Source: a virus. Taken from it: a stretch of DNA of 64,000 nt. Position 1 is the first letter of the stretch. Every line of letters starts with the position of its first letter. Below the pieces are notes generated by a model. It worked only from the letters and a program-made list of their open reading frames with translations, was not told where the DNA came from and did no database searches. This document shows, piece by piece, positions 50,748 to 64,000 of this stretch. The DNA is taken from IMG/VR virus record IMGVR_UViG_3300035698_028218, positions 7,745-71,744 of that record; one strand, written 5' to 3'. The position numbers were made by a program, and so were the translations under genes.

Positions 50748-50981
50748 TTATCTGGGTGAATATATTTCTTTTATTTTTGTAAAAATCTTATCATCCAATA
50801 ATCCCCGTTTCCTATATTTAAGTAATGTATCTGTAACTGCATCGTTTAATTGTTTACCCTCATGAAGAAATTTTATTTTTTTATCCATCTCTTCACATAT
50901 GGATTTTATTATTCCATTCCTTTTTTTCTTGGTTTCAACAAGTGCATCTATTTGCTCCTTAGTTACTATATATGTTTTCAT
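50748..50981 (-). CDS. Small hypothetical protein
   Basis: 77 aa ORF, ATGA-coupled. Confidence 0.65.
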   Translation of the reverse strand: MKTYIVTKEQIDALVETKKKRNGIIKSICEEMDKKIKFLHEGKQLNDAVTDTLLKYRKRGLLDDKIFTKIKEIYSPR

Positions 50982-52270
50982 TTTCCAAAATAAGCTTTAA
51001 CTCCGCTATCGATCCATTCTTTAGCTTGATTTATTATTTCATCAGCGATCCCAGCATCCTTAAGATCGTTAGAGGTATAGTCAGCAGCTAGTAACGCAAC
51101 AACCATCCCTAATCCGACAGTACCCTTTTTTAGTTTATCCTTTAAACCACCCTCAGATAGATTTTCCAGTGTTAAATCTTGAGTTAGATTATTTTTCTTT
51201 ATTTCCGAAATCTTTTCAAGATAACCACTTCTTCTAAGTAATTTAAATACAAGGTTTTCAACAGAGTATTCACCTTCTGATTGTAGACCAGATTTTCTGT
51301 ATTCACCCAATCTATCCATTAACTTATCTGCCTCAAGATTTGCAACTTCTGGGTCTTGTATATTTAGAAGCTCGTCAATTTCATTCATGTAGTCAGATGC
51401 CTTTAATTGTATTGAAGGCATATCCAAATTAATCATTGTTTTCTGTGGTTTACTTGACCACTCATTATTAAAAATAGAATAAATACCTGTAGATGAATGA
51501 TCTTCAGAGGTATCCTGAGCATATAATTCAACAGGCAATCCCTTAACTCTAACTTCTTCTATTTTTTGGTTCCAGTTTCTTTTTTTCTCTCTAAAATAAT
51601 CAGAAACAAATTCTCTATCACTTGAAATTTGACCAAAATCAAATAAAATATGAATATCTAAATCACTGTGTTCTGACCAATTGAAATTAGCTATTGATCC
51701 AGTTAAAATAATATCTTTATATTCTACATCTTCTAGATTAGAATATTTAATAAACTCAAGAACGTTCTTTAAAAGAAATTTTCTAACTTCTTCGTGCATA
51801 TGTTGTTCTTCATCCCAAATCAATGGGTTAAGCTCATCCTTCATAGGTAAGCTAGTTACATCAATACTTTCAGGTTCAATAACCTCACCTAAAAGCTCGG
51901 AAACTGACTTATCTGACCAAAATTTACTAGACCAGTATCTTGGTTTTTTAGTTTCATCATCTTTAGTTTCTATGTTTTTTTCACTAATATTAGTTACTGA
52001 AGGTTTGTTAAAATCAACATCCTTACCGTCATATTCAGATTCATTAAGTGAGGTGTTCTTCGGAATAATTATTATATTATGTTTTGACTTACATGTTAAG
52101 TTTTGGGTCTTAGTTTCATTTATAAATAAACCCATTGCTTTGTCAATCTCACTTCTAAAGTTTTTATGAAACTTCTCATCTAACTTTAAAATAAAGCTAT
52201 TGTTATCTTCAGTTAGACTAAAGTTTTTTGTATATGACTCAGCAATTGCTTTAATTTTATTAATGTTCAT
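50978..52270 (-). CDS. Pol-beta superfamily nucleotidyltransferase
   Basis: DIILTGSIANFNWSEHSDLDIH, PVELYAQD, GEYSVENLVFKLLRR. Confidence 0.85.
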   Translation of the reverse strand: MNINKIKAIAESYTKNFSLTEDNNSFILKLDEKFHKNFRSEIDKAMGLFINETKTQNLTCKSKHNIIIIPKNTSLNESEYDGKDVDFNKPSVTNISEKNIETKDDETKKPRYWSSKFWSDKSVSELLGEVIEPESIDVTSLPMKDELNPLIWDEEQHMHEEVRKFLLKNVLEFIKYSNLEDVEYKDIILTGSIANFNWSEHSDLDIHILFDFGQISSDREFVSDYFREKKRNWNQKIEEVRVKGLPVELYAQDTSEDHSSTGIYSIFNNEWSSKPQKTMINLDMPSIQLKASDYMNEIDELLNIQDPEVANLEADKLMDRLGEYRKSGLQSEGEYSVENLVFKLLRRSGYLEKISEIKKNNLTQDLTLENLSEGGLKDKLKKGTVGLGMVVALLAADYTSNDLKDAGIADEIINQAKEWIDSGVKAYFGK

Positions 52271-54963: not shown

Positions 54964-55434
54964 ATGAAAGGAATATTCAAAATACTCGCAATTTTAGGGT
55001 TATTAATGATCACCTCATGTGTGAAACACGAACCTAATGAACTAGCACTATTTAAATTAAACAATCTGTATTTCTTAAAAACGGAGATAAACAATAAAAA
55101 AGCATTTTTATTGATTGATACTGGTGCATCAATAACAATACTTGATATTAATCAATCTGAAAAATATGGATTTTCTGTTGGGAATAGAATTGGTAATGGT
55201 ATGACCACTGGTATTAATGGCTCAAGATCGATGTACAGAATTTCAAACTACAGGATTAGTGCTCAAGACAATGAATTTCAAATGCAAGTTGCGGGTATTG
55301 ATATTAATGAAATTGTGAGTAAGTTTAAAAAACTAGGAATTGGTGTTGTTGGTGTTCTAGGTTCTGACTTTTTCCACGATACGAACGCAAATATATCATA
55401 CAAGAAGGGTACTATTGAATTACACCCAGAATAG
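54964..55434 (+). CDS. Retropepsin-like aspartyl protease, lipoprotein
   Basis: LIDTGAS, GVLGSDF; lipobox ITSC. Confidence 0.85.
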   Translation: MKGIFKILAILGLLMITSCVKHEPNELALFKLNNLYFLKTEINNKKAFLLIDTGASITILDINQSEKYGFSVGNRIGNGMTTGINGSRSMYRISNYRISAQDNEFQMQVAGIDINEIVSKFKKLGIGVVGVLGSDFFHDTNANISYKKGTIELHPE

Positions 55435-55520
55435 CGCAACCGATTGTGTAAAAAATTGTCACAGAAGTTAACTTTATCAATACTATTTACGTATTTCGTT
55501 ATATAAACAATTATATAATA

Positions 55521-55988
55521 ATGAAGTTATTGAGAATCATTTTTTTTACATTAGTAATAATACTAACTACATCAATTAGTGAACCCATTAATAAAAATTC
55601 ACATGAATTTAAATTATATGAAAAAAAGGGTCTCTATTTTGTAAGACTAACACTTAATGGTTATATCGGTAATTTTTTATTAGACACAGGTGCGACCATA
55701 TCTATTATTGATATTAATCAGTCTAAGAATTATAAATTTAAATATCATACTACTAATTCTGAATTATCTGGGATTGGTGGTAGTTTAATTAAATATAGAA
55801 TTACAAATACAATGGTTAGTGATAGGGATTATATATTAAACATTAAATTTAGTGGCATTGATTTAAAACCAGTAATTAGTGATCTTAGAAAAAGAAATAT
55901 GCACGTTATTGGAATTATTGGTGGGGATTATCTAACTCACTGTTCTGCGGTGATAAACTATAAAGAAAAAACATTAACAATTTATTAG
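55521..55988 (+). CDS. Retropepsin-like aspartyl protease, signal peptide
   Basis: LLDTGAT, GIIGGDY; paralog of upstream gene. Confidence 0.85.
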   Translation: MKLLRIIFFTLVIILTTSISEPINKNSHEFKLYEKKGLYFVRLTLNGYIGNFLLDTGATISIIDINQSKNYKFKYHTTNSELSGIGGSLIKYRITNTMVSDRDYILNIKFSGIDLKPVISDLRKRNMHVIGIIGGDYLTHCSAVINYKEKTLTIY

Positions 55989-56827: not shown

Positions 56828-57151
56828 ATGAGTATATATAGAGTAAAGTTAATTGGTGAAGAAGGGGACATTGAACCAGTCATCAATAAACATAGTATTG
56901 TAATTCAAACTAAATGGAATGGTCTTAAAATGATGGATCACGCTACGTTTGATTTGTGGAATAGACTATTTATATTTCCAGATAACGAAAAGGCAGAATA
57001 CTTTTCTGAGAACTTTAAACATGACATGAACGACTTCAGAGAGGGTATGATGAAGGATGATTATGTTTTTCATATTGTTAATTTTAAATATCCACAAAAA
57101 GAAGAGCTATATGCTGATCAAATGCGAATGACTAAGGATTATAAATATTAA
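56828..57151 (+). CDS. Hypothetical protein
   Basis: 107 aa ORF. Confidence 0.65.
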   Translation: MSIYRVKLIGEEGDIEPVINKHSIVIQTKWNGLKMMDHATFDLWNRLFIFPDNEKAEYFSENFKHDMNDFREGMMKDDYVFHIVNFKYPQKEELYADQMRMTKDYKY

Positions 57152-57244
57152 ATGTGATATGAGTGAACAAAGACGTTATTGGTCATTTGATGAATGTTGT
57201 CAACATATGGTTTGTGGTAGATAATTAGAATTAATATTAACTAG

Positions 57245-57330
57245 ATGGTCTGGTGGGACTCGAACCCACAAGAGCGATGTGCTCATCAGAATCAAAACCT
57301 GACGTGTTTAGCCAATTCCACCACAGACCA
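57245..57330 (-). tRNA. tRNA-Gln(UUG) with long variable arm
   Basis: Acceptor TGGTCTG/CAGACCA; anticodon arm TCAGG-TTTTGAT-TCTGA; variable arm GAGC-ACATC-GCTC; T arm GTGGG-TTCGAGT-CCCAC. Confidence 0.85.
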
Positions 57331-57456
57331 TTGTTTAAATAAAAGTTGTTCCTACAAAAGTTCTCTACTACTAAGGCAAGTCCTCCATTTGGGGTTCCGT
57401 TAACTACTTTATGAGTTTATAACCCCTGACGGAACAAGCAAGGTAACTATTATTTT

Positions 57457-57537
57457 GGCAGGCAGTTGGACTTGAACCAACGTAACTAGTATACGCCAAC
57501 AACCAACCCCCAGCTTCGGGAGAATTTGTTTACCTGC
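57457..57537 (-). ncRNA. tRNA-like RNA without a clear anticodon arm
   Basis: Acceptor GCAGGTA/TGCCTGC and T arm GTTGG-TTCAAGT-CCAAC; atypical interior. Confidence 0.6.
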
Positions 57538-57542
57538 ATTTG

Positions 57543-57602
57543 GGTATAAGACGAGGAACGAACTCGCATCTACAGAGACCACAACTCTAAGCTACTTACA
57601 CC
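57543..57602 (-). tRNA. D-armless tRNA-His(GUG)-like RNA
   Basis: GGTGTAAG-TAGCT-TAGAG-TTGTGGT-CTCTG-TAGAT-GCGAG-TTCGTTC-CTCGT-CTTATACC (60 nt, G-1:C73). Confidence 0.65.
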
Positions 57603-57611
57603 ATATATTTG

Positions 57612-57684
57612 ATGCTCTATTCAGAATCGAACTGAATTTTTTCGGATCAAAACCGAACGTAATAAACCACTATACGATAGAGCA
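57612..57684 (-). tRNA. tRNA-Gln(UUG)
   Basis: TGCTCTA/TAGAGCA; TTCGG-TTTTGAT-CCGAA; TTCAG-TTCGATT-CTGAA. Confidence 0.9.
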
Positions 57685-57714
57685 ATATAAATAAGTCTCT
57701 CATATAGAGACATC

Positions 57715-57790
57715 TGGGGTGTCAACGGGGATCGAACCCTGTTCTCTCGATTCACAGTCAAGCGTAATAACCTGTTATACTTTTGACACC
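57715..57790 (-). tRNA. tRNA-His(GUG)
   Basis: G-1; GTGTCAA/TTGACAC, C73 and encoded CCA; CTTGA-CTGTGAA-TCGAG. Confidence 0.9.
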
Positions 57791-57832
57791 ATTTTAAAAA
57801 AATATTATCACATTGTGTTTCCACTAACTTTG

Positions 57833-57905
57833 TCGGGTATGCCAGATTTGAACTGTATCTCGTAGACCCAAACTACGCATGTTACCTGATTACACCACAT
57901 CCCCG
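57833..57905 (-). tRNA. tRNA-Pro(UGG), apparent 8/4 fold
   Basis: CGGGGATG/CATACCCG; CGTAG-TTTGGGT-CTACG; short T stem ACAG-TTCAAAT-CTGG. Confidence 0.8.
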
Positions 57906-57919
57906 ATATTTTCTAAAAT

Positions 57920-57937
57920 CAATATTTCAAATAACTT
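57920..57937 (-). promoter_or_regulatory. boxA-like antitermination motif
   Basis: AAGTTATTTGAAATATTG, 15/18 identical to 60819-60836. Confidence 0.55.
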
Positions 57938-57942
57938 TATTG

Positions 57943-58016
57943 TCTAAGTGGTGAGAGTCGAACTCACAATAACCCTCCTTCCAAGGGAGGTAACCATGCC
58001 AGTGGATCACACCTAG
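57943..58016 (-). tRNA. tRNA-Pro(UGG)
   Basis: CTAGGTG/CACTTAG A73; CCTCC-CTTGGAA-GGAGG; GTGAG-TTCGACT-CTCAC. Confidence 0.85.
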
Positions 58017-58027
58017 TTTTTGGACAT

Positions 58028-58057
58028 AAAAAAACCCATTCATTACTGAACGGGTTT
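58028..58057 (-). terminator. Attenuator terminator of array 1
   Basis: AAACCCGTTCA-GTAA-TGAATGGG-T7, between leader ORF and first tRNA. Confidence 0.9.
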
Positions 58058-58086
58058 AGCTATATTTTATTAAGTTTTATTCCTTA

Positions 58087-58173
58087 TTAAATATGCATAG
58101 TTTCCCCGTTCAACATTCTTTGCGGATGCTGTGCTTGGGGTTGATGTGCGATATTTAATAAAACTGTTTTCAT
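58087..58173 (-). CDS. His/Gln/Pro-rich leader peptide (28 aa) of array 1
   Basis: MKTVLLNIAHQPQAQHPQRMLNGETMHI*; contains TGAACGGG complementary to terminator 5' arm. Confidence 0.85.
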   Translation of the reverse strand: MKTVLLNIAHQPQAQHPQRMLNGETMHI

Positions 58174-58194
58174 TACTTTAATTTTCTTCTTTTG

Positions 58195-58225
58195 CAAACC
58201 TACAACAATATTTGAGGTTTCCAAA
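58195..58225 (-). promoter_or_regulatory. Bacteroidetes sigma70 promoter of array 1
   Basis: TTTG-N19-TAGGTTTG, exact consensus. Confidence 0.85.
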
Positions 58226-58321
58226 ACTTTTTTTTACAAAAAGCAATAATTTTTACTACTTCACCAATAAATACGTTAAAAAAACTAATTTGTTTAAAAA
58301 AGTTTAGTATTTATTTTTAAA

Positions 58322-58699
58322 ATGGATGATTTAGATTTTTGGAACATAGATAAAGAAAGAAAAGAGAGAATTCCTTTAGACATTATTAATACTAAAGAAT
58401 TTCAAGTAAAATTTATCGTTGATCTATTAAATGATTCCCCCTCTATTGTTAGTCGTGAATCTATTGAGACCCATAGACAAAACGACATATACACCAGTGA
58501 TATGACCATACTAAAGGTTTTTAATATTGAGTATTCATATGAAAAAATATTAATTCCAATTGATATTGTTGTGGTGACTGACGAAGGTAAAAATGATTTT
58601 AATCTAAAGTTTTCTACCATAGAAAATAAAGACATTGATTTTGGCTGGATAGATAAAAATATTGCGTTAGAAAAAAAAGTTTTGAATTCTCTTATATAG
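58322..58699 (+). CDS. Hypothetical protein
   Basis: 125 aa; GTATTTAT at 58307. Confidence 0.65.
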   Translation: MDDLDFWNIDKERKERIPLDIINTKEFQVKFIVDLLNDSPSIVSRESIETHRQNDIYTSDMTILKVFNIEYSYEKILIPIDIVVVTDEGKNDFNLKFSTIENKDIDFGWIDKNIALEKKVLNSLI

Positions 58700-58715
58700 T
58701 TACTATCTTTACTAG

Positions 58716-58973
58716 ATGAATAATGATAATTATGAATTGGTGAATGTGGGGGTTAGTAAAAATTCAAATTCATTCAATGTAACTACGAATGGTGGTGCAT
58801 TATTTAGTATTAAATCAAAGTATGATTTACATCTTCAATGGAAACCCAAGCCTAATATTACTACTTTTGAATTAGCACAATCAATCCCATATATTTTTAT
58901 GGGAGAAGTTGAATCTTCATCAATAGACCAAAATGAAAAATTTTGGAGAAACTTTAATATAACACCAAGATGA
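58716..58973 (+). CDS. Hypothetical protein
   Basis: 85 aa, WKPKPNITTFELA. Confidence 0.65.
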   Translation: MNNDNYELVNVGVSKNSNSFNVTTNGGALFSIKSKYDLHLQWKPKPNITTFELAQSIPYIFMGEVESSSIDQNEKFWRNFNITPR

Positions 58974-59377
58974 AGATTTTTTTAGACGACTATAGAATCC
59001 CCTTAGATGCGTGGATGTATATGAAAGAAAAACAATATCAAGATAGGGATTGGGTGATTGTTAAGAATTACGATGAATTTGTAAGACTACTAAATATGAC
59101 TAAACCAGAAAATATCGAGAGAATTTCTTTTGATCATGATTTAGCACCTGAACACTATGCCCCAAAAGAACATTGGATTAATTATGATGCTTGGGAAGCT
59201 ACACAAGACTTTGAATTTAAAACAGGTTTAGATTGTTGTGATTACTTCATAGAGTATATGAAAAAAAACAATATTAAAACCCTGCCTAAATATTCTTGTC
59301 ATTCAAAAAATATTGGAAGAAGAATAAGAATTTTACATCAATTAACTCACTATAGAAATGGGAGCACCGAAATTTAA
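58970..59377 (+). CDS. Cyclic-phosphate-processing receiver-domain protein
   Basis: KIFLDDYRIP, WVIVKNYDEF, ISFDHDL, KTGLDCC, HSKN. Confidence 0.8.
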   Translation: MKIFLDDYRIPLDAWMYMKEKQYQDRDWVIVKNYDEFVRLLNMTKPENIERISFDHDLAPEHYAPKEHWINYDAWEATQDFEFKTGLDCCDYFIEYMKKNNIKTLPKYSCHSKNIGRRIRILHQLTHYRNGSTEI

Positions 59378-59636
59378 ATTAAAAGAAAATATATTAACTA
59401 TCACATATGACTTTAATGAGGTTTATTTGGAAACATTATTACTTGTTAAGTCAAATAATGGTATTGTGGAGTTTATTAATAGAGAAGAATTCACATCTGA
59501 CATCGATCATTTAGAATTAAGTTGGGTAATATGTGATGAGCTTGTTAGTATGGGTCTTTTATTTGAAGACTTAGAAGCTATGAATGTCACATATGAATTA
59601 ACCAAAGAAAGTGAAGACTTAATAAATAGTATATAA
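59358..59636 (+). CDS. Hypothetical protein
   Basis: 92 aa ORF. Confidence 0.6.
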   Translation: MGAPKFKLKENILTITYDFNEVYLETLLLVKSNNGIVEFINREEFTSDIDHLELSWVICDELVSMGLLFEDLEAMNVTYELTKESEDLINSI

Positions 59637-59862
59637 GGAGCAGGTATATGGTACAACGAGAAAGAACCATATGAAGGCACCACAGACATATTAAGGAAGG
59701 TAGGTGCCATTTGTATACAAATGGGAGAGCAATACTCAATGACAGAAAGAAAGTTCCTTGAGAAGCAAATATTAGGGTGAAAAAAATTTAAAAACCTAAT
59801 CCTCTGTAAATCAAAGTGTTGGGTTTTTATTAGACTTTTTTTTAAAAAAATAAAAACATTTA

Positions 59863-59893
59863 CTTGTTCTTTGCGTATTTAGTTGTAGGTTTG
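59863..59893 (+). promoter_or_regulatory. Bacteroidetes sigma70 promoter of array 2
   Basis: CTTG-N19-TAGGTTTG; shares GTTGTAGGTTTGCA and AGAAAATTAAA with array 1 leader region. Confidence 0.85.
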
Positions 59894-59924
59894 CATAAGC
59901 AAATACAAAAAACAGAAAATTAAA

Positions 59925-60053
59925 ATGAAAAATTTATTCGACATCTTATTAAACACCTTAGAAGCGTTAGCTAACGTGGTGCTAGATGCAGTCCTTATGG
60001 ATGATGCTGAATGGGATAGGAATGGGTTTTCTAAAATAGATGATGTGAGTTAA
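59925..60053 (+). CDS. Ala/Leu/Asp/Glu/Val/Trp-rich leader peptide (42 aa) of array 2
   Basis: MKNLFDILLNTLEALANVVLDAVLMDDAEWDRNGFSKIDDVS*; GGGTTTTCTA (60024-60033) complementary to TAGAAAACCT (60073-60082). Confidence 0.85.
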   Translation: MKNLFDILLNTLEALANVVLDAVLMDDAEWDRNGFSKIDDVS

Positions 60054-60075
60054 AAACTTAAATAATCGAAACTAG

Positions 60076-60107
60076 AAAACCTGATCCGAAAGAATCAGGT
60101 TTTTTTT
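60076..60107 (+). terminator. Attenuator terminator of array 2
   Basis: AAAACCTGATCC-GAAA-GAATCAGG-T8. Confidence 0.9.
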
Positions 60108-60126
60108 GTTTATAGGGGTTTAAGTT

Positions 60127-60441
60127 ATGTCACAAAGAAAAAAACAAATAAGAGAGAAATTCAGAAATGATGTCTTCTCTAGAGATAATCACAGATGTAA
60201 GGTTTGTGAAGAAGATAGTGAAAAATTAGATGCTCATCATATCACCGATAGAAATGAGATGCCGAATGGAGGTTATGTAAGTGAGAATGGAATCTCATTA
60301 TGTGAACCATGTCACGAAAAAGCAGAAGTTTGGCATTCAAGTTTAAAAGATGATTTTGTAGATGGGTATCAACCAAATGATTTATATGTGTTAATAAATA
60401 GTAATTATGATTTAGCACATAAAAAATCAGAGCAATTATAA
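60127..60441 (+). CDS. HNH endonuclease
   Basis: VFSRDNHRCKVC..LDAHHI..ENGISLCEPCHEKAE. Confidence 0.9.
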   Translation: MSQRKKQIREKFRNDVFSRDNHRCKVCEEDSEKLDAHHITDRNEMPNGGYVSENGISLCEPCHEKAEVWHSSLKDDFVDGYQPNDLYVLINSNYDLAHKKSEQL

Positions 60442-60555
60442 TTGAGAATGTACTGTGGTGACATAGTACCTCCAACCAGTAAAGAAGTACCACTTACGGA
60501 GTTACCTAAGTTCGCAGGGGAGTAAGGAAGTTGGTCTGGGTGATATGTCTCAATT
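60440..60555 (+). ncRNA. Unidentified structured RNA
   Basis: Closing stem AATTGAGA/TCTCAATT, hairpin GTACTGTG-GTGA-CATAGTAC, CCAAC/GTTGG, CTTAC/GTAAG. Confidence 0.45.
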
Positions 60556-60559
60556 AAAT

Positions 60560-60634
60560 GGGGGTGTAGCAAGTGTTGGCTATTGCAACTGCTTTGCAAG
60601 CAGTAGATCGTGGGTTCAATTCCCATCACTTCCA
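60560..60634 (+). tRNA. tRNA-Ala(UGC)
   Basis: GGGGGTG/CACTTCC with G3:U70, A73; ACTGC-TTTGCAA-GCAGT. Confidence 0.9.
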
Positions 60635-60729
60635 CTGGCTTGGGTTATATGAATCCAAGTAAAAATAGAAAGTTGGGATTATGGTTTGTCTGTACCACCA
60701 GTACCGTTATAAAGGTAACAGACGCAAAC

Positions 60730-60809
60730 GCCTCTGTGGTTAATGCAAATTGGTACAGCTACTGGTTTTAGAAACCAGACCCTTGTAGGTTCGAATCCTA
60801 TTAGAGGTA
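60730..60809 (+). tRNA. tRNA-Leu(UAG) lacking long variable arm
   Basis: GCCTCTG/TAGAGGT A73; CTGGT-TTTAGAA-ACCAG; GTAGG-TTCGAAT-CCTAT; enlarged D region. Confidence 0.8.
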
Positions 60810-60818
60810 CAAAGAAAT

Positions 60819-60836
60819 AAGTTCATTGAAATGTTG
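60819..60836 (+). promoter_or_regulatory. boxA-like antitermination motif
   Basis: AAGTTCATTGAAATGTTG, resembles Bacteroidetes rRNA-operon boxA as recalled. Confidence 0.55.
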
Positions 60837-60860
60837 GTAATAAAGTAATTAAAATACGAA

Positions 60861-61041
60861 ATCTTGAAGCGAAAGGCAAAAGAAACATTGAGTGGGTTAG
60901 ATGCCCAACAGGTTCTAGATATTGAAAACTGGTCAGTAAATTAAATAAGTAGGTGTATTAGTAGCGAACGCTCATTAACCAAAAGAGAGTAGGCACATTA
61001 AACCTTAATCCCTGCGCACTGGTTCGATTCCAGTCAAGATA
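60861..61041 (+). ncRNA. Long tRNA-like RNA (~180 nt)
   Basis: ATCTTG/CAAGAT closing stem stacked on T arm ACTGG-TTCGATT-CCAGT. Confidence 0.55.
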
Positions 61042-61062
61042 AAGTTAGAATGTGTAATTTTT

Positions 61063-61133
61063 GGAGGGCGTAGTGTAACGGTAGCATGTGTCACTGTCTA
61101 TGACAAGGAGGGGTTCGAATCCCACGCTTTCTG
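61063..61133 (+). tRNA. tRNA-Asp(GUC), apparent 8/4 fold
   Basis: GGAGGGCG/CGCTTTCT G73; TGTCA-CTGTCTA-TGACA; GGGG-TTCGAAT-CCCA. Confidence 0.8.
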
Positions 61134-61143
61134 CTAAATAAAT

Positions 61144-61217
61144 AAGAATGAGGTGTGTACTAGCATTTTCTGTATGTCACGCAGATAGGTTTAGGGTGAA
61201 ATTCCTTTACGTTCTTA
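61144..61217 (+). tRNA. Degenerate tRNA-Asp(GUC)-like RNA
   Basis: AAGAATG/CGTTCTT; TCTGT-ATGTCAC-GCAGA; non-canonical T loop. Confidence 0.55.
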
Positions 61218-61223
61218 TTAAAT

Positions 61224-61299
61224 GGAGTGTTGGTCTAGTTTGGCTTAGGATGTCCCCCTGTCACGGGGAAGGTCACGGGTTCAAATCCCGTACATTCCG
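61224..61299 (+). tRNA. tRNA-Asp(GUC)
   Basis: GGAGTGT/ACATTCC G73; TCCCC-CTGTCAC-GGGGA; ACGGG-TTCAAAT-CCCGT. Confidence 0.95.
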
Positions 61300-61378
61300 C
61301 AATACTACTCCCTCTAGCGAAAACTAGTGAAATAATATAACTACATATATCACTGGTTATATTATGTGGGAGAATTTT

Positions 61379-61499
61379 GGAAGTATTCCTTTGTAAAGTA
61401 TGAGCTTAAAGCAGAATACGGGATAAATCAAGGCGTTGATTAAATTCTAGGAGTAACGAGGTGAAAATGCATTTGTTGGTTCGAGTCCAACTACTTCCG
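61379..61499 (+). ncRNA. Expanded tRNA-like RNA (121 nt)
   Basis: GGAAGTA/TACTTCC G; T arm GTTGG-TTCGAGT-CCAAC; interior hairpins including AATCAA-GGCG-TTGATT. Confidence 0.65.
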
Positions 61500-61511
61500 C
61501 AAATAATACAC

Positions 61512-61584
61512 ACATCATAGCATAACGGTATGCAGCAGGTCTCCAAAACCTCGCATAGACAGGGTTCGATTCCTTGATGGTGTG
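61512..61584 (+). tRNA. tRNA-Trp(CCA)
   Basis: ACATCAT/ATGGTGT G73; AGGT-CTCCAAA-ACCT; CAGGG-TTCGATT-CCTTG. Confidence 0.8.
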
Positions 61585-61585
61585 C

Positions 61586-61761
61586 AAAGGGGGTGTCTAA
61601 TGATAAAATCTTGTCATATAACAGGTATAGTCGTTTTTAGATATCAAAAACCATGTAGATTTGGCGTGGGATATGGGTCGGGGTAGGTACCCGAAATTGT
61701 TCTTCAAATCGGAACACTAGTAAGAAAACTCCATATATGAGTATATTTAAAACACCCTTTT
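61586..61761 (+). ncRNA. Unidentified multi-hairpin RNA
   Basis: Closing stem AAGGGGGTGT/ACACCCTTTT enclosing TCGGG/CCCGA, TGTTC/GAACA, ACTC/GAGT and GTTTTT/AAAAAC hairpins. Confidence 0.5.
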
Positions 61762-61765
61762 ATTT

Positions 61766-61837
61766 ATTCCGTTCGTCTAACGGCAAGGACATTGGATTTT
61801 CAATCCAGAAATAGGGGTTCGATTCCCCTACGGAGGA
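61766..61837 (+). tRNA. tRNA-Glu(UUC)
   Basis: TTGGA-TTTTCAA-TCCAG; AGGGG-TTCGATT-CCCCT; acceptor ATTCCGT/ACGGAGG. Confidence 0.9.
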
Positions 61838-61852
61838 CAATATTTAAATATT

Positions 61853-61923
61853 GGAGATTAACTCAACTGGAAGAGTGCTTCCGTTACATGGAAGAAGTTG
61901 TGGGTTCGAATCCCTCATCTCCA
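61853..61923 (+). tRNA. tRNA-Val(UAC)
   Basis: GGAGAT/ATCTCC A73; CTTCC-GTTACAT-GGAAG; GGG-TTCGAAT-CCC. Confidence 0.85.
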
Positions 61924-61929
61924 ACACAT

Positions 61930-62061
61930 GCTGTAATGAAGTAGAGTGAACTTAAATGGATTGTACAGTCCTATTAAGGAATCTATCAGTCTAAGAGACA
62001 ATTGGCGTTAGCTACTTATAATGTTGTACAATATTCTAGGGTTCAAGTCCCCAATATGGCA
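61930..62061 (+). ncRNA. Expanded tRNA-like RNA (~130 nt)
   Basis: GCTGTA/TATGGC A; T arm GGG-TTCAAGT-CCC; anticodon arm replaced by ATTGTACA/TGTACAAT stem with sub-hairpins. Confidence 0.55.
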
Positions 62062-62066
62062 CAAAT

Positions 62067-62138
62067 TCTCCGTTCGTCTAGGGGTCAGGACACTGGGTTT
62101 TCATCTCAGCAACAGGGGTTCGATTCCCCTACGGAGGA
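62067..62138 (+). tRNA. tRNA-Glu(UUC)
   Basis: TCTCCGT/ACGGAGG; CTGGG-TTTTCAT-CTCAG; 3' part identical to 61766 copy. Confidence 0.92.
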
Positions 62139-62148
62139 CAATATTTAA

Positions 62149-62460
62149 ACATCTATTAATTTTATTAAAAAACCTAATCACCAATATTCATATACCTTAA
62201 CACTATCTAGTGGTGAGGTAGGTGATGAAATTAGAGACTGGATTAATGGTCTTTTCACTAAGATAACATGTGGTGTGGATTCATTGGAAGAACTAATGGA
62301 TTTATATAACAAGGCGAAGGAAATGAATTTACCTGTCTCTTTAATTGAAGATGCTGGGTTAACGGAATTTAATGGTGAAAAAACAATCACCGCAATTGCA
62401 ATTGGTGCAGCGTCTTCCGAAAGAATAGATAAATTAACAAAAAATTTAAAGTTACTTTAA
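62149..62460 (+). pseudogene. 5'-truncated peptidyl-tRNA hydrolase Pth2
   Basis: Open frame ..WINGLFTKITCGVDSLEEL..LIEDAGLTEF..TITAIAIG..IDKLTKNLKLL; N-terminal VRxDL..GK..AQ..HA motif absent, stop at 62146. Confidence 0.75.
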
Positions 62461-62497: not shown

Positions 62498-63694
62498 CTA
62501 CCCACCTACACCAAGAGGTGATAGATGGGCTTCGGGTTTCACAGGATGTGCATTGCTAACAATGTCTGATTTTTCCTCCACCTTTGTAATGGCAAGTTCC
62601 TCACCATATATTTTTAATCCTTCTTTTAGAATATTGATACTTGCGTTTAAATCACGGTCTAATTTATGACCATTTTTGCAAGTCCATTCTCTATCTGAAA
62701 GGTTTAAATCTTGATTTATATATCCACAAACATTGCAAGTTTTTGATGAAGGATACCAACGATTAATCTTAACAACAGTTTTATCGTTCCAATTTGCCTT
62801 GTATTCAACAAATCGAACAAATGTACCCCAACTTGCATCTGCAATATGTTTAGATAGTTTTCTATTTTTAATCATTCCTTTGATATTCAAATCTTCAAGG
62901 CAAATTATATCATAATTAGATACAATATCGTTACTCACTTTATGTAATACATCTTGTCTTGTGTTTGCTATTTTCTCGTGAATTAAGGCAACTTTACGTT
63001 TTTGTTTTTCAAACATATTGCTACCTTTTGTTTTACGAGAAAGATGTTGTTGTGCTTTTTTTAATTGTCTTTCATATCTTTTTGTGTATCTATTGTTTTT
63101 GTATTTAATTCCATCAGAAGTGATTGCAAAGTCTTTAATTCCTAAATCTATTCCTATCGTTTTACCAGTTTTTTTGCTTGGTACATATTCTTGTTCAGTT
63201 AAAATGGAAACGAAATATTTACCTGTTGGTGTTTTAGATATTGTGAATTTACCTATTTCACCTTTAACTTCTCTATGAATATTTACTTTAATACCACCCT
63301 TGAACTTTGGTGCATATATTCTATCATTAACTACTTTAGTATGTTGCGGTACTGTAAACGTATTCTTTTTACGTTTAGATTTAAACTTTGGAAACATTGC
63401 ATTTCCACGAAAGAAATTAACATAAGCAGTATCTAAACTTCTTAAAGCAAATTGCAAAGTTTGAGAATTAACTTCTTTTAACCAAATAGTATCTTCTTTT
63501 TTCTTTAGTTCAGTTAAAGTTTTTGCTTGTCCGTAATAATTATCAGTTTTTTTATCTGCTTGATATTGTTCCTTTCTTTCGTTTAAAAAGTGATTGTAAA
63601 TATATCTAACACAACCGAAGTGCTTATCCAATAAGGTTTTCTGTTCCTCATTAGGTAGTAATTCAAATTTATATGACCTATGTATATTCTTCAC
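62498..63694 (-). CDS. tnpB: TnpB RNA-guided endonuclease
   Basis: HFGCVRYIYN HTH, GIDLGIK (RuvC-I), LEDL (II), SSKTCNVCG zinc finger, DRDLNAS (III). Confidence 0.95.
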   Translation of the reverse strand: MKNIHRSYKFELLPNEEQKTLLDKHFGCVRYIYNHFLNERKEQYQADKKTDNYYGQAKTLTELKKKEDTIWLKEVNSQTLQFALRSLDTAYVNFFRGNAMFPKFKSKRKKNTFTVPQHTKVVNDRIYAPKFKGGIKVNIHREVKGEIGKFTISKTPTGKYFVSILTEQEYVPSKKTGKTIGIDLGIKDFAITSDGIKYKNNRYTKRYERQLKKAQQHLSRKTKGSNMFEKQKRKVALIHEKIANTRQDVLHKVSNDIVSNYDIICLEDLNIKGMIKNRKLSKHIADASWGTFVRFVEYKANWNDKTVVKINRWYPSSKTCNVCGYINQDLNLSDREWTCKNGHKLDRDLNASINILKEGLKIYGEELAITKVEEKSDIVSNAHPVKPEAHLSPLGVGG

Positions 63695-63841: not shown

Positions 63842-64000
63842 ATGCAATCAAATTACATTTCTACAAATCATTCAAAACATTACTTAAAAGCACATATCAT
63901 TTTAGTTACTAAATATCGTAAACCATTATTGGTTAATCAACTTAAACAAGATATGTACACAATATTCAACAATATTATAGATAACTCAGATTTTAGCGTA
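63842..64000 (+). CDS. tnpA: IS200-type Y1 transposase TnpA (partial)
   Basis: MQSNYISTNHSKHYLKAHIILVTKYRKPLL. Confidence 0.85.
   Translation, partial: MQSNYISTNHSKHYLKAHIILVTKYRKPLLVNQLKQDMYTIFNNIIDNSDFSV

Follow-up and report, generated by a model that had tools for sequence, protein, structure and literature searches.

The window analyzed here comprises 64,000 nucleotides (nt) of DNA, the 3' 64 kb of the 71.7-kb virus record IMGVR_UViG_3300035698_028218 in IMG/VR, which comes from a salt-lake habitat and is judged to be approximately 20% complete. Genes for a tail sheath, a major head protein, a portal, and a large terminase identify it as a fragment of a jumbo myovirus. Two divergent transfer RNA (tRNA) arrays flank a 2-kb block of small genes, and upstream of the rightward array (array 2) positions 59864-60107 hold a promoter-like motif, a short open reading frame (ORF), an antiterminator, and a terminator. 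This arrangement was confirmed, and so was the sequence itself by metagenome DNA from other samples, in which one contig spans positions 57000-60956 with zero differences; among 13 runs listed, none carrying it was RNA. In the original prediction, the element was a leader-peptide attenuator with several amino acids as its input and the tRNA array under its control, and this interpretation is supported by the anatomy within the window and by composition and covariation in related phages. Judged from sequence comparisons, the element most probably acts as a ribosome-mediated leader-peptide attenuator for tRNA-supply control of a phage tRNA array.

The promoter-like site (59864-59893, plus strand) was read from the sequence as TTG (59864-59866), a gap of 19 nt, and TAGGTTTG (59886-59893), and we take it to resemble the Bacteroidota -33/-7 consensus. 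Within the window, exact copies of TTGTAGGTTTG are found only before this unit and before the other array, and exact occurrences of GTTGTAGGTTTGC are limited to the promoter-like sites of the two arrays. In related phages, TAnnTTTG precedes 15 of the 24 leader units described below. The first ATG after the promoter-like site opens the leader ORF (59925-60053, plus strand), which encodes 42 amino acids (MKNLFDILLNTLEALANVVLDAVLMDDAEWDRNGFSKIDDVS) and has no visible Shine-Dalgarno sequence upstream. The ORF ends at 60053 and the terminator occupies 60077-60107, so that the ORF sits between the promoter-like site and the terminator.

Codons 12-31 of the leader are exactly as listed in the original prediction, with four Asp among them. 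The putative sensor codons 18-31 (59976-60017, plus strand; VVLDAVLMDDAEWD) contain 11 Ala, Asp, Glu, Val, or Trp in 14 positions, which are amino acids of the downstream tRNAs. No other ORF among the 313 small ATG ORFs of the window has this density, which is reached by 2 of 17049 14-residue segments of the proteome encoded by its long ORFs. Across the whole leader, these five amino acids account for 18 of 42 residues, compared to 25.3% in the long ORFs, and 16 of 41 codons are readable by array anticodons under simple wobble.

The leader ORF has no Pfam domain match, and a word-indexed search of 5.8 billion proteins returned the ORF itself alone. An exhaustive scan of 1.84 billion representatives (no length limits) added a single protein of 957 amino acids, which contains six repeats that each share 11-13 of 26-31 residues with the leader; this match is read as spurious owing to its repetitive, low-complexity sequence. 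Based on the Pfam result and the scan, the ORF is not a fragment of an ordinary conserved protein, a possibility that the original prediction had itself raised. A conserved small protein was also rejected as a candidate, given that there is no Pfam domain and no homologue beyond leaders of the same design, such as those in the related records G001 and G006, which share the conserved motif ..LDAEW..GFS. Rfam gave no leader, T-box, or riboswitch match at 59863-60107 at E values up to 1.

The leader is followed by an intrinsic terminator (60077-60107, plus strand; AAACCTGAT / ATCAGGTTT) with an 8-nt loop, a T8 tail, and a hairpin energy of -10.1 kcal/mol. The stem pairs 60077-60085 with 60094-60102, T8 lies at 60100-60107, and a scan reports the site with 12 pairs; the region contains 10 terminator-like sites, compared to 3.1 ± 2.1 in shuffles. 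The 5' strand of the antiterminator, region 2 (GGGTTTTCTA; 60024-60033, plus strand), lies within the ORF in codons for Gly-Phe-Ser, and pairs with region 3 (TAGAAAACCT; 60073-60082, plus strand), which overlaps the terminator 5' arm. Pairing the terminator arm with the 107 nt upstream of the terminator gives a best duplex of -17.4 kcal/mol, compared to -9.0 ± 2.0 in dinucleotide shuffles, none of which equaled it (0/200; z -4.2). The long antiterminator described in the original prediction stands in its 10-bp helix between 60024-60033 and 60073-60082, while the inner helices that were named are weaker; in one of them, GATGAT/ATAATC, there is a G-A mismatch and three pairs are kept in the fold. 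In minimum-energy folds of this unit and of its sister unit (below), region 2 is paired with the 5' part of the ORF.

Array 2 (60560-62139, plus strand) consists of Ala-UGC, Ser-ACU or Leu-UAG, Asp, a degenerate Asp-like copy, Asp, a 121-nt tRNA-like element, Trp, Glu, Val, and Glu. The ambiguous gene (60730-60810, plus strand) is Ser(ACU) in ARAGORN and Leu(UAG), with the anticodon loop TTTAGAA, in a permissive run, and as Leu(UAG) it would suit the leader's CTA and CTT codons. Two of the three tRNA-Asp genes counted previously are confident, and the third, the degenerate copy at approximately 61143-61218 (plus strand), appears only in the permissive mitochondrial mode of ARAGORN. The tRNA-like element (61379-61499, plus strand; Rfam tRNA, 22 bits) has acceptor, D, and T arms, with 66 nt replacing the 17-nt anticodon arm. 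Between the terminator and the first tRNA (60560) lies an ORF of 104 amino acids for an HNH endonuclease (60127-60441, plus strand; PF01844, E 2.4e-5), which the original prediction did not mention. It looks like a homing-endonuclease insertion riding on the regulated transcript, since relatives lack it at this place, and the terminator is 452 nt from the first tRNA here compared to 4-185 nt in the other 23 units.

The divergent array 1 is preceded by a sister attenuator (58028-58202, minus strand) with TAGGTTTG at 58195-58202, a leader ORF, an antiterminator strand, and a terminator (58028-58057, minus strand). Between the promoter-like motif and the ORF is an A-rich 5' untranslated region (UTR) that resembles that of the unit at 59864-60107. 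The sister leader (58087-58173, minus strand) encodes 28 amino acids (MKTVLLNIAHQPQAQHPQRMLNGETMHI), including HQPQAQHPQ, in which eight of nine consecutive codons are His, Gln, or Pro; no nine-residue segment of the long ORFs in the window (0/17054) reaches this. Inside this ORF, TGTTGAACGGG is complementary to the terminator 5' arm CCCGTTCAGTA, with a duplex of -16.6 kcal/mol compared to -8.2 ± 2.3 in shuffles.

Array 1 (57244-58016, minus strand) begins 11 nt past the T-run of the sister terminator and comprises Pro-UGG, Pro-UGG, His-GUG, Gln-UUG, degenerate tRNA-like elements, and Gln-UUG. The His gene scores 46.5 bits in Rfam and was found by ARAGORN at a lower threshold. The tRNA-like elements, including a short His-like copy, lie at 57542-57615 and approximately 57420-57500 (minus strand), and those of both arrays may be either duplicates in decay or tRNAs that have gained insertions. 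There is no cross-match between the two leaders, as the 42-residue leader has no Pro, His, or Gln (0/42) and the sister leader has 4/28 Ala, Asp, Glu, Val, or Trp. Taken alone, the sister unit is statistically clearer than the unit at 59864-60107. Its terminator also gave the only leader match in Rfam, Leu_leader (RF00512) at 58028-58091 (minus strand), with 22 bits against a cut-off of 50 and an E value of 0.54.

Leader composition and tRNA arrays in related phages

Relatives were found through the major capsid protein in IMG/VR and fall into a group with 70-80% identity, which includes several contigs of 180-357 kb, and a second group with approximately 52% identity. Among ten records of the 70-80% group searched for tRNAs, six contain arrays (G001, G002, G004, G006, G008, and G009, with 38, 65, 10, 23, 48, and 22 tRNA matches, respectively), G003 has three scattered tRNAs, G005 has one, and the fragments G007 and G010 have none. 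The arrays of the six records are sorted by amino-acid class and mostly stand behind the same kind of unit, in which a TAnnTTTG motif is followed by a 22-42-codon ORF and a G+C-rich hairpin plus T-run.

The residues of the leaders follow the class of the array behind them. Pro/His/Gln arrays have leader segments such as HIQPQHQPPQ, PQPKHQLQ, QHPQPQHPQ, and QPQPQQHPQ, while Asp/Glu/Val/Leu/Ala/Trp arrays have DILVVLSVAVLLWDDAAEE, DMAVVAEALVLDAEW, and SVMAVALNAVLLWDAVEDAL. The segments TYYYTKKSYKKQ, KKYYYKKSSK, TYYYSKSYKKQ, and YYLYKSYKK precede Lys/Tyr arrays, ITITQITRIRGTKT precedes Thr/Arg/Ile arrays, and the leaders of Thr/Cys/Asn/Ile/Ser/Phe/Gly arrays are rich in those same residues. An eighth record (G025), located by a short DNA match, has the leader MKNLLDILSLNLESVLLWAVNEDDLLIDVGLY before Asp, Glu, Val, Leu, and Trp tRNAs; its leader includes just one Ala codon, and the 3 kb of G025 covered show no tRNA-Ala. 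The leaders diverge fast at the DNA level, since a BLAST search of the leader DNA against 20 related records found G001 at 72% identity and three short matches, one of which led to G025. The exact promoter-plus-UTR pattern had 0 matches in viral contigs, and a DNA search of a phage collection gave tRNA-sized matches only.

The correspondence was quantified on units picked automatically in seven records (31, then 24 units). To count as a unit, a hairpin needed five or more T, a tRNA within 700 nt, and an ORF of 12-60 codons that began with ATG and ended at most 110 nt upstream or inside the hairpin 5' arm; of several terminators, the one closest to the tRNA was then kept, provided that it lay no more than 500 nt away. 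ORFs overlapping a tRNA were dropped and the longest remaining ORF was used. Array amino acids are represented in the leader above the expectation from the window proteome in 20 of the 24 units (binomial p<0.05), and the mean excess over all 24 is 0.209, compared to 0.001 ± 0.031 after permutation (0/20000 permutations reach the observed value). Each of the four misses has its own particulars: a hairpin inside an array without a leader, Tyr and Lys tRNAs overlooked by ARAGORN and read separately (anticodon loops CTGTAAA and CTTTTAA), an overlapping ORF chosen by the longest-ORF rule, and an array shortened by the gap rule.

A stricter rule, which takes the first ATG after TAnnTTTG, retained 15 of the 24 units, with ORFs of 22-42 amino acids and stop codons 19-38 nt before the terminator. 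At the codon level (simple wobble), the excess in these 15 units is 0.227 compared to 0.029 ± 0.036 (0/20000 permutations), and 184 of 218 sensor codons are readable by an array anticodon. The match is specific to the frame, being 0.46 in frame compared to 0.20 and 0.19 in the other frames, and the true frame is highest in 14/15 units. When each genome is taken by itself, so that the classes are independent, combining p values by the Fisher method gives 3e-4 to 8e-11.

Side observations on these genomes concern the promoter region and the tRNA repertoire. The motif CGTATTTA lies within the promoter-like site (59874-59881, plus strand), and a second copy (CGTATTTA or GTATTTA) lies at 58268-58275 (minus strand); the window has six copies compared to 2.3 expected. 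Either form is found 4 nt before or 2-3 nt after TAnnTTTG at most tRNA-array leaders, also in the relatives L082, L083, L086, L087, L089, and L103, and may represent a phage-specific promoter or operator element. Sorting into CCN/CAN, GAN/GUN/GCN/CUN/UGG, AAR/UAY, and other classes is seen in L082, L083, L086, L087, L092, and L093 (G001, G002, and G008). Some genomes have near-complete sets of isoacceptors, and their leaders use a matching spread of synonymous codons. Lone tRNAs of relatives with the suppressor-like anticodons CUA and UCA (L083:16907, L087:17500, L094:1291, and L085:1671-1745) hint that some members of the clade reassign stop codons or read through them.

Pairing between leader and terminator

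Each leader carries a copy of the 3' arm of its own terminator. When the 107 nt upstream of each terminator were paired with terminator 5' arms (23 units, internal hairpin left out), the mean duplex was -16.4 kcal/mol with the own terminator compared to -10.8 with those of other units, and none of 20000 reassignments equaled this. The terminator stems vary among the phages, as in CCCGTTCA, CCCCGTTC, CCCATTCAA, and CCCAAGCAA, and the matching copy is present each time in the last codons of the leader.

Covariation was examined class by class. In an alignment of seven Pro/His/Gln sequences, pairing in the antiterminator amounts to 82.6%, compared to ≤54% in shifted registers, and three pairs differ on both sides; in the terminator, pairing is complete (100%) and four pairs show such double changes. 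In the subclass of the unit at 59864-60107 (G000, G001, and G006), 32/33 antiterminator cells are paired and two pairs are changed on both sides, which is weak by itself because 45 of 500 shuffles of the three sequences do as well. Region 2 is invariably located at the end of the ORF, in its final codons, and the sensor codons are upstream. A ribosome at the stop codon would cover the antiterminator strand, and this masking geometry is clear in four records where the ORF ends ...GTC GGG TAA and GTCGGG is the antiterminator strand. The change of leader content with array identity and of the antiterminator with the terminator supports a terminator that is conditional rather than constitutive, which would also explain why a promoter is separated by such a block from the only genes that it serves.

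Proposed mechanism and competing explanations

In the proposed mechanism, transcription would begin at the promoter-like site and the 42-codon leader would be translated at once. With ample Val, Leu, Asp, Ala, Glu, and Trp aminoacyl-tRNAs, the ribosome would complete the ORF and cover or block region 2 (GGGUUUUCUA), the terminator hairpin would form, and RNA polymerase would halt before the tRNA genes. If any of these aminoacyl-tRNAs were scarce, the ribosome would stall in codons 18-31, leaving region 2 free to capture region 3 as it emerges; the pairing of regions 2 and 3 would block the terminator, and the array would be transcribed, here together with the inserted HNH gene. As phage tRNAs accumulate, stalling would stop and transcription would be turned off again, class by class. 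Such a circuit would amount to negative feedback on tRNA supply, as the signal would be the aminoacyl-tRNAs encoded downstream. The phage thus probably makes the tRNAs of an array only when they run short, and the unit is best read as one member of a set with one attenuator for each amino-acid class of tRNAs.

Several observations weigh against this interpretation. Taken alone, the unit at 59864-60107 has a modest enrichment (20 of 41 residues from the array, counting the doubtful Ser, compared to 0.33 expected; p 0.03) and is the weakest of the significant units. Its leader also has Asn, Met, Leu-TTA, Thr, Phe, Ile, and Lys codons without a tRNA in the visible array. The original prediction had noted the absence of Asn and Met tRNAs and suggested looking for them in relatives; the homologous array of G001 and G006, which are among the closest relatives, indeed contains tRNA-Met together with tRNA-Leu(UAA/CAA), at the far end in G001, while Asn tRNAs lie in other arrays. 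These Leu and Met genes could explain the TTA and ATG codons of the leader. Tracking is also imperfect in G004, where the leader keeps Ala and Trp codons and only Leu, Asp, and Glu tRNAs were found behind it, and the Leu-UUR/Met and Thr/Arg/Gly arrays of G002 have no leader within 450 nt. The former array may be the tail of a preceding array, like Leu-UAA, Leu-CAA, and Met behind the homologous array in G001. Orthologous units of related phages are moreover non-independent observations.

A few features of the RNA and the more distant relatives also count against the interpretation, and the folding results given below are mixed. Region 2 ends 17 nt before the stop codon, which is at the edge of a ribosome footprint and makes masking borderline in this unit, and the default state of its free RNA is ambiguous, since one construct adopts the terminator fold and a shorter construct the antiterminator fold. 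In five records searched from the 52% capsid clade, only G011 (L099-L101, 294 kb, capsid 52% identical) has arrays; its 26 tRNAs stand in mixed, unsorted arrays, and no leader ORF with a terminator was seen before them. The attenuator system seems to be confined to the 70-80% capsid clade.

One alternative accepts that the leader is translated and that stalling matters, with an output that is instead 5' processing or stability of the pre-tRNA, access of Rho, or termination upon stalling (a reversed sign). The folding results leave some room for it, as there is no clean thermodynamic switch. With the full terminator and a ribosome-sized mask, equilibrium folding kept the terminator at every codon in 10/15 units, and the terminator was lost or weakened at some positions in 5/15, clearly in this unit, the Pro/His/Gln unit of G002, and the Asp/Glu class of G001. 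A thermodynamic switch model was rejected because the mask did not flip most units, and since the terminator persists in most equilibrium folds, the choice must be kinetic, as in classical attenuators. As a kinetic proxy, the transcript was folded as cut before the terminator 3' arm with the ribosomal A site placed codon by codon. The 5' arm then pairs upstream at 182 of 218 sensor-codon positions compared to 125 of 226 other positions (Fisher p 1e-10), a contrast that favors attenuation but is partly due to the early place of the sensor codons in the ORF. With the ribosome at the stop codon, the 5' arm is free in 9/15 units and still paired upstream in 6/15, and a conserved anti-antiterminator helix between regions 1 and 2 was not established across units or classes. 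However, the element that covaries with the terminator is the copy of its 3' arm in the last ORF codons. This copy comes after the sensor codons, a layout known from classical attenuators, where stalling further upstream releases the antiterminator. The G+C-rich stems and the 5-9 T of the T-runs are furthermore characteristic of intrinsic terminators, and this alternative is accordingly considered unlikely.

It is about as improbable that the same attenuator evolved to respond, like those of biosynthetic operons, to amino-acid starvation of the host, with uncharged tRNA as the signal. Ribosomes stall alike whether a tRNA is absent or uncharged, as the trp, his, and leu attenuators illustrate. 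The genes under control do not fit a starvation signal, though, because extra tRNA does not relieve amino-acid starvation, and the one-to-one match between sensed codons and controlled tRNA genes fits feedback on tRNA supply.

Finally, the unit is very unlikely to be an ordinary small gene, coding for a 42-residue protein or a small RNA, that has a promoter of its own and ends in a leaky terminator working constitutively, even though partial terminators between phage genes are common, the p value of its enrichment alone is only about 0.01-0.03, the terminator is mostly kept in equilibrium folds, and the HNH gene and a 118-nt spacer before tRNA-Ala part the terminator from the tRNAs and leave room for a second promoter, which counts against attenuation at this locus. 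In that case, the tRNAs would come from read-through or a separate promoter, and the leader codons would match the array by chance. In contrast, leader composition follows the array over five or six classes in seven records, in the frame of the ORF only, each leader copies the 3' arm of its own terminator, and the only relatives of the peptide are leaders built in the same way. The first tRNA also lies at most 45 nt past the T-run in 18/24 units, and as close as 4-15 nt, so that these arrays must be transcribed through the terminator, with little room for a separate promoter.

Flanking genes, known attenuators, and implications

Several other genes of the window lie near the arrays. A protein with a cREC_REC domain (58970-59377, plus strand; E 2.4e-15) lies in the region between the arrays, two tandem retroviral-type aspartyl-protease-like ORFs are located at 54964-55988 (plus strand), and a nucleotidyltransferase-fold protein (50978-52270, minus strand) might act on tRNA 3' ends. 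Neighboring ORFs of 92 and 612 amino acids have no close relatives among viral contigs. Downstream of array 2, an ORF of 61 amino acids (62275-62460, plus strand) matches only the C-terminal half of the peptidyl-tRNA hydrolase PTH2 (E 1.7e-14) and adjoins the TnpB gene of an IS200/IS605 element (62498-63694, minus strand) near the contig end, where the start of a further ORF (63842-64000, plus strand) is taken for a putative TnpA transposase. In metagenome contigs, the IS200/IS605 region has several-fold higher depth and many variants. The best TnpB match (94%) is a metagenome-assembled genome of Gammaproteobacteria, and matches of 64-77% come from Bacteroidota, Patescibacteria, and archaea; host assignment through TnpB was rejected as these taxa conflict.

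The closest known systems are the leaders of the amino-acid operons in Escherichia coli and its relatives (trpL, hisL, leuL, thrL, ilvL, and pheL). In these, a short ORF likewise separates the promoter from an intrinsic terminator, codons for the relevant amino acids are clustered, and an antiterminator strand at the ORF end competes with the terminator. The multivalent leaders of thr (Thr and Ile) and ilvGMEDA (Leu, Val, and Ile) are closest, since they also sense several amino acids per leader. The phage units differ in their tRNA gene targets, in sensing five or six amino acids, in their phage setting, and in forming a set that partitions the genetic code with one leader per tRNA array; the unit at 59863-60107 moreover matches no leader family in Rfam. 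Structurally, the units correspond to multivalent attenuators of the thr and ilv type, and what is new is the target, the breadth, the one-leader-per-class organization, and the phage setting.

Other systems share the logic to a lesser degree. The pheST operon of E. coli is controlled by an attenuator (pheM) for phenylalanyl-tRNA synthetase, which reads the supply of the cognate aminoacyl-tRNA. This is similarly a leader-peptide attenuator on a component of the translation apparatus, although its target is a synthetase, a single amino acid is sensed, and its setting is a bacterial chromosome. Another possible precedent, the tRNA-Phe genes of E. coli (pheU and pheV), was rejected, as they have plain promoters with no leader ORF or terminator upstream. 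T-box riboswitches are also conditional terminators/antiterminators that read the state of a specific tRNA and have translation-related targets, but their contact with uncharged tRNA is direct, made by a specifier codon and the T-box sequence with no need for translation, whereas a translated ORF would do the reading here. Compared to the tRNA arrays of large phages, the clustering is the same, and the sorting into classes with a leader each is different. Full-text literature searches found no report of a dedicated sensor or attenuator upstream of phage tRNA arrays.

It has long been asked why phages have tRNA genes, and very little is known of how these are regulated. Published work ties phage tRNAs to codon compensation and to escape from host defenses that cleave tRNAs (PMC10264068, PMC11555353, PMC11464382). 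The attenuators described here would show a phage measuring decoding capacity for each codon class and answering with the matching tRNAs, so that explanations based on supply and demand, whether codon compensation or replacement of degraded or cleaved host tRNAs, would be supported and become directly testable. A more tentative proposal, which may well be too broad, is that the clade runs a modular, on-demand tRNA supply in which approximately six codon classes each have their own array and translated sensor, missing host tRNAs are detected in real time, and only the replacement set is transcribed. Host tRNAs might be lost through a mismatch in codon usage, host shut-off, or cleavage by anticodon nucleases. 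Anticodon-nuclease defenses are reported to hit tRNAs such as Lys and Tyr, and escape from tRNA-cleaving defenses could, speculatively, be one use of such sensors.

If this broader proposal is true, these would be the first tRNA genes regulated by ribosome stalling on their own codons, with a possible role of the leaders as counter-defense sensors. Under the attenuator interpretation itself, classical attenuation would be extended to a new target, the gene of the sensed molecule itself, and the units would represent compact natural sensors of specific aminoacyl-tRNA pools that could serve as reporters.

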